From an uncultured Chloroflexia bacterium (GTDB lineage: Bacteria; Chloroflexota; Limnocylindria; Limnocylindrales; CSP1-4): DNA of 64,000 nucleotides. Of this stretch, positions 659-1,480 are shown piece by piece. The translations under genes were made by a program, and so were the position numbers. The stretch is taken from positions 800,001 to 864,000 of the forward strand of contig CAWHDR010000001.1 of NCBI GenBank assembly GCA_963828165.1, given 5' to 3'. Numbering within the stretch: position 1 is the stretch's first letter; each line of letters starts with the position of its first letter. The notes beneath the pieces are model-generated. The model did not search any database. It had not been told where the DNA came from and worked only from the letters and a program-made list of their open reading frames with translations.

Positions 659-1192
659 GTGTTCATCCTGTACGCCATCCCGATCGGGATCATCGCGGGC
701 TACGTGCTCGGGGGCCGTCTGGATGGACTCGCCGGGATCCCGTTCCGATGGGGCTGGCTCGCGCTCGCCGGCCTGCTCGTCCAGGTGCTGCTCTTCGCCG
801 AGCCGGTGGCCGCGACGATCGGCGCGGCCGGGACGCCGATCTACCTGGGCTCGACCGCGGCCGTCCTTGTCGCGGTCCTGCGAAACCTCGGCATCCCTGG
901 CATCCCGCTCGTCGCCCTCGGCGCGGCCAGCAATCTCCTGGCCATCCTCGTCAACGGCGGGGTGATGCCGGCCTCGCCCGAGGCGGTGGCCGCGCTCGAG
1001 CCCGAAGCCGCCGGATTCTCCAACAGCGCGGTCATGTCCGACCCGGTCCTGCGGCCGTTGACGGACATCTTCACGCTGCCGCCGTGGGTCCCCTTCGCGA
1101 ACGTCTTCAGCGTCGGTGACGTGCTCATCGGACTCGGCGTGGTGACGGTCATCGGCCTGGGAATGCGCCAAAGGGCTACCCAAACCGGCTAG
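659..1192 (+). CDS. DUF5317-like multi-pass membrane protein (possible LspA-like aspartyl peptidase)
   Basis: Hydrophobic 177 aa with GGRLDGL, SNLLAILVNGGVMP, LTDIF and VFSVGD motifs. Confidence 0.8.
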   Translation: MFILYAIPIGIIAGYVLGGRLDGLAGIPFRWGWLALAGLLVQVLLFAEPVAATIGAAGTPIYLGSTAAVLVAVLRNLGIPGIPLVALGAASNLLAILVNGGVMPASPEAVAALEPEAAGFSNSAVMSDPVLRPLTDIFTLPPWVPFANVFSVGDVLIGLGVVTVIGLGMRQRATQTG

Positions 1193-1193
1193 T

Positions 1194-1252
1194 CGTACCA
1201 GTACCGATGGCCTATGGCCGATCGATCCGGTCGGCCGTAGGTTTCTGGTACG
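1194..1252. promoter_or_regulatory. Nested inverted repeat between the DUF5317-like gene and the small peptide gene
   Basis: CGTACCAG(1194-1201)/CTGGTACG(1245-1252) enclosing CCTATGGCCGATCG/CGGTCGGCCGTAGG. Confidence 0.5.
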
Positions 1253-1298
1253 GGGGCACGCAGAGCGCACTCCCAAGTGAGCCCAGAGGGACGCACCC

Positions 1299-1400
1299 AT
1301 GAACACATTCAAGAATCAGACCTTCCGGATCGTCATGTTCCTGTCCGTTCTGGCCAGCTCGAGCCTCGTGCTCATGGCCGGCCGACGCTGGGGACCCTGA
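1299..1400 (+). CDS. 33-aa hydrophobic small peptide MNTFKNQTFRIVMFLSVLASSSLVLMAGRRWGP
   Basis: Hand-translated; AGAGGG RBS at 1285-1290; two hairpins downstream; paralog at 13949-14035. Confidence 0.8.
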   Translation: MNTFKNQTFRIVMFLSVLASSSLVLMAGRRWGP

Positions 1401-1418
1401 CACCCGATCGCATACCAA

Positions 1419-1480
1419 GGACCCGCTGGGGCGGGTCCCGCCAGCCTCTTGAGCGGTCGTCTGCCCAGACGGCCGCTCTT
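1419..1480 (+). terminator. Tandem hairpins after the small peptide gene
   Basis: GGACCCGC/GCGGGTCC (1419-1438) and GAGCGGTCGTCTG/CAGACGGCCGCTC-TT (1451-1480). Confidence 0.6.

Follow-up and report, generated by a model that had tools for sequence, protein, structure and literature searches.

The window analysed here is a 64,000 nt segment (positions 800,001 to 864,000 of contig CAWHDR010000001.1, assembly GCA_963828165.1) of the genome of an uncultured Chloroflexota bacterium of the class Limnocylindria; it has a G+C content of 70%, and the host genome is 3.3 Mb and 88% complete. Near its left end there is a small open reading frame (ORF) of 33 codons, MNTFKNQTFRIVMFLSVLASSSLVLMAGRRWGP followed by TGA (1299–1400), located directly downstream of a gene encoding a stand-alone DUF5317 membrane protein of 177 aa (659–1192), and these two genes are the subject of this analysis. 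Both are on the forward strand, to which all of the following signals also refer. The ORF has a Shine-Dalgarno-like GAGGGA (1286–1291) 7 nt 5’ of its ATG, and farther upstream there is an imperfect palindrome (1194–1254) with arms at 1198–1224 and 1228–1254 that are 70% complementary, together with a pairing of 1194–1201 and 1245–1252. Two hairpins follow the stop codon, a short one with eight perfect pairs and a 4-nt loop (1419–1438), which is kept in the nearest relatives only, and a GC-rich terminator-like one with 13-nt arms (92%) followed by TCTTCGATTCC (1451–1478), recognised as an inverted repeat and by comparative alignment. A DinB_2-superfamily gene (95–646, forward; Pfam PF12867, E 3.9e-08) is directly 5’ of the DUF5317 gene, and to the right of the hairpins are a YetF/DUF421 membrane protein gene (1543–2064, forward; Pfam PF04239, E 1.8e-15) and a DUF192 gene (2064–2483; Pfam scan). 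A preliminary description of this stretch, made from its letters alone, had listed the small ORF behind a DUF5317-like gene with its ribosome binding site, palindrome and hairpins, and all of these are present; it had further proposed that the ORF encodes the precursor of a signalling peptide, and we arrive at a different interpretation of the product.

The small ORF and its family

The DUF5317 protein was used as the query in 41 related genomes, and reading of the 30 genus-level loci returned revealed 20 ORFs of one family, each 28–33 codons long, in 17 of these loci. All 20 are on the same strand as DUF5317 and downstream of it when contig orientation is accounted for, and all start with ATG or GTG and have GAAGGG or GAGGTGG 6–9 nt upstream. 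Their alignment (A2) gives the consensus MKANLARFTxALSLLASMALxLGAGxRWx, in which, by window numbering, five positions do not vary (K5, R10, L18, A27 and W31) and two more, A19 and L23, are almost invariant. There are two subtypes: type 1, the form in the window, follows the pattern ...FR..MLLSALASS.LVLEA(A/G)RRW, and type 2 the pattern VKANLARFT...LGAGx(K/R)W. The window ORF itself has a basic N-terminal end, a predicted 18-residue hydrophobic helix, RRW, and a variable GP tail. In several places (L006:1030–1223, reverse strand; L142; L154; and protein P0002) a type 2 ORF and then a type 1 ORF occur in tandem with one DUF5317 gene, and such pairs are sometimes merged by gene callers into a single 70-aa protein.

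Differences among family members at codon positions 1, 2 and 3 number 3265, 2637 and 4938 for type 1 and 937, 495 and 1464 for type 2 (3>1>2 in both), and the G+C content at third codon positions (GC3) of ORF 1299–1400 is 0.85 (GC1 0.48, GC2 0.45), with values of 0.84–0.91 in the neighbouring genes. An RNA-only element at this position is ruled out by the codon-position pattern and the GC3; Rfam analysis of window coordinates 1–16000 gave a chance microRNA match alone (E 0.62).

An exhaustive search of 1.84 billion representative proteins with a hidden Markov model (HMM) of the family returned 204 proteins at E<=1e-3 and 10 at E<=1e-10. These 204 provide independent support for the family; the match of the window ORF to the model in a search of its own genome (E 4.2e-15, 58.2 bits) is partly circular because the window peptide is the first row of A2. 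In most of the database matches the family region is C-terminal, as gene callers place the start too far upstream. The ten clusters that were looked up are unnamed or listed as ‘hypothetical protein’, and the ESM Atlas contains clusters of 434, 266 and 52 members that likewise have no family name. None of the 20 A2 members matches any NCBIfam model, and their Pfam matches are at chance level only (Maff2 for one member, E 0.1; Pardaxin for one, E 0.2). We conclude from these comparisons that ORF 1299–1400 is almost certainly a real, conserved coding gene, as the preliminary description had allowed, and conserved small ORFs do indeed stand beside DUF5317 homologues elsewhere. As judged by its sequences, the G-A-G-x-[RK]-W family to which it belongs is previously uncurated and consists of proteins with a basic N-terminal end and a predicted hydrophobic helix, then the motif G-A-G-x-[RK]-W and 0 to ~15 variable residues.

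The window contains a second small ORF of 28 aa, MARLRSSLVFYLMVVAPTLIEFGRRWGP followed by TGA (14035–13949, reverse), with GGAGGTG at 14046–14040, 5 nt before the ATG. Its upstream neighbour is msrB (14147–14572, reverse; Pfam SelR, E 5e-52), which encodes methionine-R-sulfoxide reductase, and it converges on an ABC permease gene. Both small ORFs end in GRRWGP-stop, as had been noticed earlier, and at a distance of 12.55 kb these are the only two occurrences in any of the six reading frames of the genome (3.3 Mb). Permuting the six residues gives 180 sequences which, with a stop added, occur on average 0.15 times; 2 of the 180 reach two copies, and among all 27 such occurrences an open hydrophobic stretch precedes these two alone. 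The 21-nt ends of the two ORFs differ at two sites, both of them third-codon positions, and the shared ending is more than chance. The second ORF has a GC3 of 0.86, and it is kept behind msrB in only the two closest of 24 other msrB loci (MARLRSSLVYFLMVLAPIAADFGRRWDL and MTRLRASLFSVLLAASQLLMVVLGRRWDP), where it ends in GRRWDL and GRRWDP; in one relative a 3-nt indel preserves the frame. A search of the genome with the family HMM misses the second ORF at E<=10, and hhalign relates it to the family only through the last 13 columns (probability 78%, E 1.7e-5). We regard it as a real small gene, predicted to have the same architecture and G-R-R-W end, and either a distant paralogue or convergent, without a link to DUF5317. 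In a comparison of three genomes, the ~95 nt upstream of it (within 14036–14146, reverse) show higher conservation than the hydrophobic middle of the ORF and may be a promoter or an element of the 5’ untranslated region. Other genes near msrB encode a DksA/TraR C4 zinc-finger protein (14895–15239, forward) and a Caa3_CtaG cytochrome oxidase assembly factor (16201–17469, reverse).

Association with DUF5317

The family model has just two matches in its own genome (E 4.2e-15 and 6.2e-12, with the next at 0.9), and both members sit downstream of the two stand-alone DUF5317 paralogues. Among species-level DUF5317 loci, 51 of 80 have a family member, always on the same strand, 49 of them downstream and two just upstream, and the association proposed from the window alone is thus borne out. 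A peptide-first search was positive in 9 of 401 sampled Chloroflexota genomes, which belong to the taxonomic family of the window genome and to one other of the same class, and DUF5317 is within 1.5 kb in 10 of the 14 distinct loci. Beyond this class, two genomes of one genus in another Chloroflexota class (L182 and L189) have members downstream of DUF5317 that end in GAGIHWT (28 aa) and GAGIRWW, and the L182 ORF begins 53 nt from the DUF5317 stop codon.

The pairing is kept in two gene contexts, DinB–DUF5317–small ORF, as in the window, and GGDEF/EAL–DUF5317–small ORF–ilvBN; the DinB–DUF5317 gene pair itself is present in 54 of 80 related loci (tblastn context table). The second context is that of the paralogous locus of the host genome, in which a gene for a 1469-aa GAF-GGDEF-EAL protein is followed by the second DUF5317 gene, a type 2 small ORF and ilvBN. 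Of 17 type 2 loci, 12 have a GGDEF-EAL gene immediately upstream on the same strand and two more have it farther upstream. The preliminary description had suggested that DUF5317 genes often neighbour membrane HD-GYP/GGDEF proteins, and this holds in part, for the paralogous locus with its GAF-GGDEF-EAL enzyme and the 12 of 17 type 2 loci. The host copy of this gene (L157:5191–9600, reverse; G000:C1:749190–753599) has no Pfam match in its N-terminal 850 residues, and the protein is not of a known peptide-receptor type. Taking these gene orders together, the small ORF is genetically coupled to DUF5317, as far as synteny can indicate. The genetic link offers a first handle on DUF5317, a domain without assigned function.

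Outside the class, 29 DUF5317 loci were examined and 28 are usable (L176 ends 32 nt downstream); in 27 of these no small hydrophobic ORF follows DUF5317, and the same is true of two further genomes of family f7 (L188 and L190). Genomes of the phylum sample in which DUF5317 is found only within open frames of ~580–760 aa, the MFS-fused form, have no small-ORF match. In the tree, the DUF5317 genes of six loci (L150, L138, L085, L097, L109 and L123) fall within the Limnocylindria sequences, whereas the public records label these loci Saccharimonadales, Thermomicrobiales or Anaerolineaceae, and the labels or the binning may therefore be wrong.

The DUF5317 protein (659–1192) is a near full-length match to PF17248 (profile positions 2–150 of 151; E 8.1e-27, and 94.5 bits against a gathering score of 25 bits), which settles its assignment, and it has about five predicted helices. 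Alignment A3 shows two conserved motifs, SNLxAIxxNGGxMP and NVFSxGDxLIGxG; the Asp of S-x-G-D is invariant and that of L-T-D almost so. The AF2 model has a pLDDT of 76.5; a Foldseek search of PDB with this model gave no solved fold with an E value below 3, and the DUF5317 profile has no matches among PDB sequences. DUF5317 is present in 116 of the 401 sampled Chloroflexota genomes (a tally that includes the unpublished G272), and two of 14 control genomes, those of Thermus thermophilus and Thermotoga maritima, have matches above the cut-off; these organisms are both cultivable, so the domain could be studied there. In longer proteins DUF5317 is mostly fused to DHA3-type MFS transporters, and the MFS_3/MFS_1 fusion is its commonest long form in the protein database; rarer fusions are to GGDEF/EAL proteins (P0170, P0171 and P0176) and, in one case, YetF (P0169). 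The host genome has a third copy of this kind (L061:739–2922, reverse; G000:C1:1363738–1365921), in which DUF5317 is the N-terminal domain of a 728-aa MFS_3/MFS_1 (DHA3-like) transporter, and this copy has no small ORF. A search of one paper library found nothing on DUF5317 or PF17248, nor on small proteins in Limnocylindria.

Expression and proposed role of the micro-protein

Comparative alignment of the intergenic regions of 12 type 1 loci reveals a conserved upstream box, GTACCGATGGCCTATGGCC (GTAC-GATGG-CCATGGCC), at window coordinates 1201–1219, where it overlaps the palindrome, and a conserved TAGGTT at 1238–1243. These boxes probably mark a promoter-like region of the small gene, and for the segment 1201–1243 a promoter and a regulator-binding site are both conceivable. 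Substitutions on either side of the stem leave the hairpin at 1451–1478 intact (RNAalifold, 12 loci, -22.4), with TTC-GATTC following it, and the hairpin persists also where the next gene is not YetF. A strict promoter and terminator scan of 600–2100 reported no sites, with the hairpin 1451–1478 not passing, and the terminator-like hairpin and the TAGGTT box therefore rest on the comparative alignment. Two soil metatranscriptome runs, from two studies, yielded contigs matching 1259–1407 (depth 10.8; run X20), 1319–1414 (depth 118; ending in adapter sequence) and 1319–1631 (depth 25), which are 94–98% identical to the window and thus stem from relatives. The DUF5317 gene has no contig in either run, and DNA runs cover the flanks; parts of the stretch that have no RNA contigs are not evidence of silence. 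The contigs hint at strong and separate expression of the small ORF, and the small gene appears to be a short transcription unit of its own, with a promoter-like box at ~1201–1243 and the terminator-like hairpin at 1451–1478. As such a unit, it could be expressed at a level that differs from that of DUF5317.

We suggest that the product is a micro-protein that probably stays in the membrane, and we put at about even the chances that it works there with the stand-alone DUF5317 protein as an accessory or regulatory subunit. It would most likely form a single helix of ~30 residues with its N-terminus inside and the C-terminal [RK]-W at the outer interface, and would act by helix–helix packing with DUF5317 or with a complex of which DUF5317 is part; in one paralogous context such a module would include a c-di-GMP enzyme. 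The uninterrupted hydrophobic stretch is ~18 residues long, and A19, L23, A27 and W31 are spaced i, i+4, i+8 and i+12 and would thus fall on one helix face. This conserved stripe and the presumably interfacial [RK]-W point to an embedded helix with a packing face rather than to a disposable leader with a defined product. A complex prediction for DUF5317 (A3) and the micro-protein (A2) gave a score of 0.21 (mark 0.32), which speaks neither for nor against binding.

Several observations weigh against this putative partnership. There is no family member, nor any other small hydrophobic ORF downstream, in 29 of the 80 DUF5317 loci, and six further stand-alone DUF5317 loci also lack the small ORF; DUF5317 thus evidently works without it. 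A search of the 29 loci for divergent small ORFs gave candidates only at L085–L087, ~440 nt downstream and with no W motif, and these were rejected as looking spurious. Conversely, two loci (L062 in G042 and L064 in G328) keep a type 1 small ORF where DUF5317 is missing after DinB, its position being after DinB or between DinB and YetF; the small gene can thus persist when its DUF5317 neighbour is lost; at L065 a tandem pair of small ORFs adjoins an MFS gene instead of DUF5317, and the second small ORF of the window adjoins msrB. On a quick and weakly resolved DUF5317 tree, loci of like label (type 1, type 2 or none) group strongly together, with ~12 changes needed, and the 51 positive loci thus represent few independent events and the synteny could be historical. 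The RNA contigs are unstranded, and RNA libraries can contain DNA. Finally, the n-h-c arrangement, in which small residues (GAG, AAG) precede [RK]W, would equally suit a cleavable signal peptide.

Many of the same points would be expected if the micro-protein had another partner or an autonomous role, for example with the GAF-GGDEF-EAL enzyme or in envelope stress, and its position behind DUF5317 were inherited synteny. The persistence of the small ORF at L062 and L064, its MFS neighbour at L065, the msrB neighbour of the second ORF, the promoter-like box and terminator-like hairpin of its own, and the few independent events implied by the clustered tree labels are all consistent with this explanation. 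Nonetheless, the same-strand downstream place recurs in two gene contexts that are unrelated and also in another class, and in the host genome no family member occurs away from the two stand-alone DUF5317 genes; we consider a role apart from DUF5317 unlikely.

Another conceivable arrangement is a new two-part membrane module, in which the micro-protein would present its short [RK]-W end outside, or release it after cleavage, and DUF5317 would process or sense it; the invariant Asp in S-x-G-D and the second conserved Asp of DUF5317 may be remotely reminiscent of the GxGD intramembrane proteases. Such a module would feed c-di-GMP turnover where the GAF-GGDEF-EAL enzyme is adjacent, and MFS transport in the case of the transporter fusions of DUF5317. 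Taken as a whole we think this unlikely. If it were true, it would give DUF5317 its first function and would be a new micro-protein-based c-di-GMP input in uncultured soil Chloroflexota.

The pheromone interpretation of the preliminary description would have the N-terminal part be a disposable signal sequence and (G)RRWGP a released peptide processed by the adjacent membrane protein. In its general form, a signal of ~27 residues would be cut after GAG, AAG or MAG to release 3–6 residues of the form x-[RK]-W-x (RRWGP in the window), with DUF5317 perhaps acting in processing or export. The n-region with K and R, the hydrophobic core and the small residues at -3/-1 before [RK]W are compatible with this, as is the variation by lineage of the tail and of the residue before [RK]W, as in pheromone cores, and so is the link of the paralogous locus with a c-di-GMP enzyme. 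The ending RRWGP recurs in 5 of the 51 loci (L077, L078, L098, L107 and L126) and RKWGPF in one more (L197), so that WGP is found in several lineages. The invariant Asp in the S-x-G-D of DUF5317, with the near-invariant one in L-T-D, could also be cited in its favour.

The family tails argue for a different conclusion. After the invariant W there is either nothing or N, F, S, T, V, P, Q, H, Y, GP, YL, DW, EW or WD, some members have longer tails such as SFASFGF and GVSAAAQVVGVELDW, up to a maximum of ~15–20 residues, and a near-identical relative (P0019) has RRWGL and then continues in another frame. A conserved GRRWGP unit is ruled out, since the GP tail varies across the family and in the orthologues of the second ORF, and with a tail of 0 to ~15–20 residues and no fixed sequence there is no defined product; a mature region of defined length and position, as in Agr, Phr and SHP, is not found. 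The supposed leader is instead the most conserved part, holding most of the conserved positions (K5, R10, L18, A19, L23 and A27) with the one-face stripe typical of helix packing, and its hydrophobic stretch of ~18 residues is of the length of a membrane anchor. The Pfam scan of DUF5317 finds its own family alone, with no protease and no AgrB family, and together with the PDB sequence and Foldseek searches provides no peptidase family or fold for a processing role; many DUF5317 genes moreover lack the small ORF. No AgrB, ABC exporter, RRNPP regulator or histidine kinase is beside the small ORF in the window, and the Pfam scan shows no receptor-type gene there; the preliminary description, too, had seen no obvious receptor in the window. 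The pheromone interpretation is accordingly unsupported, and release of such a peptide seems to us distinctly unlikely; were it correct, it would add a novel type of peptide signal from outside Firmicutes and Actinobacteria.

It is more improbable again that the gene encodes a membrane peptide like the type I toxins, checked by an antisense RNA, with the abundant metatranscriptome RNA being the antitoxin. Its size, single hydrophobic helix and aromatic and basic C-terminal end resemble those toxins, there are tandem copies at L006, L027, L030, L142 and L154, and short, unstranded RNA contigs of high depth cover exactly the ORF. This explanation is difficult to reconcile with a stable same-strand place behind one gene across families and classes, which is not the patchy, multi-copy occurrence of a toxin, with just two family members in the genome that are both behind DUF5317, and with conserved helix positions that suggest a specific partner. 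Least of all do we favour a leader peptide or upstream ORF whose translation would govern the hairpin at 1451–1478 and hence YetF, for instance by terminating slowly at Pro-TGA-C: the conserved terminator-like hairpin is 3’ of the ORF with YetF next at 1543, the window ORF does end in Pro-TGA-C and the RNA contig 1319–1631 spans the ORF into YetF, but of the 51 loci with the ORF only 17 have YetF downstream, the hairpin is kept where YetF is not next, YetF abuts DUF5317 directly (gap 30–70 nt) in several loci without the small ORF, the peptide is conserved over its whole length, unlike most leaders, and neither the last residue nor the stop context is conserved, all of which makes it very improbable. 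Arrest-peptide-like ribosome stalling at Pro-TGA-C is ruled out by the last residues (W, N, H, Y or D) and stop contexts (TAG-C, TGA-A or TGA-T) that differ among members.

Comparison with known systems

Small membrane proteins are systematically missed by annotation, and this family has neither a curated model nor a literature while including hundreds of database clusters; its host lineage, the Limnocylindria, is abundant in soil and freshwater and uncultured. If the DUF5317 protein and the micro-protein are a functional module, the pair would be a directly testable two-gene system for heterologous expression.

Three groups of known small proteins invite comparison. With the type I toxin peptides Hok, TisB, Ldr, Fst and PepA1 the micro-protein shares a hydrophobic helix of ~30 residues, a charged or aromatic C-terminal end and, in some cases, tandem arrangement; it differs in being in stable synteny with one gene at family- and class-level distances, in having only two copies in the genome and in having no known antisense RNA. 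The Phr, SHP and AgrD/AgrB systems resemble it in the basic N-region, the hydrophobic core and a short, polar, lineage-variable C-terminal end, whereas the micro-protein is conserved in its N-terminal region and helix and the length of its tail is not fixed. The window neighbours also differ from those of the signalling systems, being DinB_2, DUF5317, YetF and DUF192, with no AgrB, PptAB or Eep-type gene and no histidine kinase or RRNPP regulator among them.

KdpF, AcrZ, MgtS and CydX are small proteins that serve larger membrane proteins. The micro-protein has no sequence relationship to them (with no NCBIfam match and only chance-level Pfam matches), its presumed partner DUF5317 has no known function and no solved fold, and its gene seemingly has its own promoter and terminator. 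It is nonetheless like them in having ~30 residues that form one predicted hydrophobic helix with basic and aromatic residues at the helix ends, in being encoded on the same strand beside the gene of a larger membrane protein, and in being dispensable in part of the lineage.

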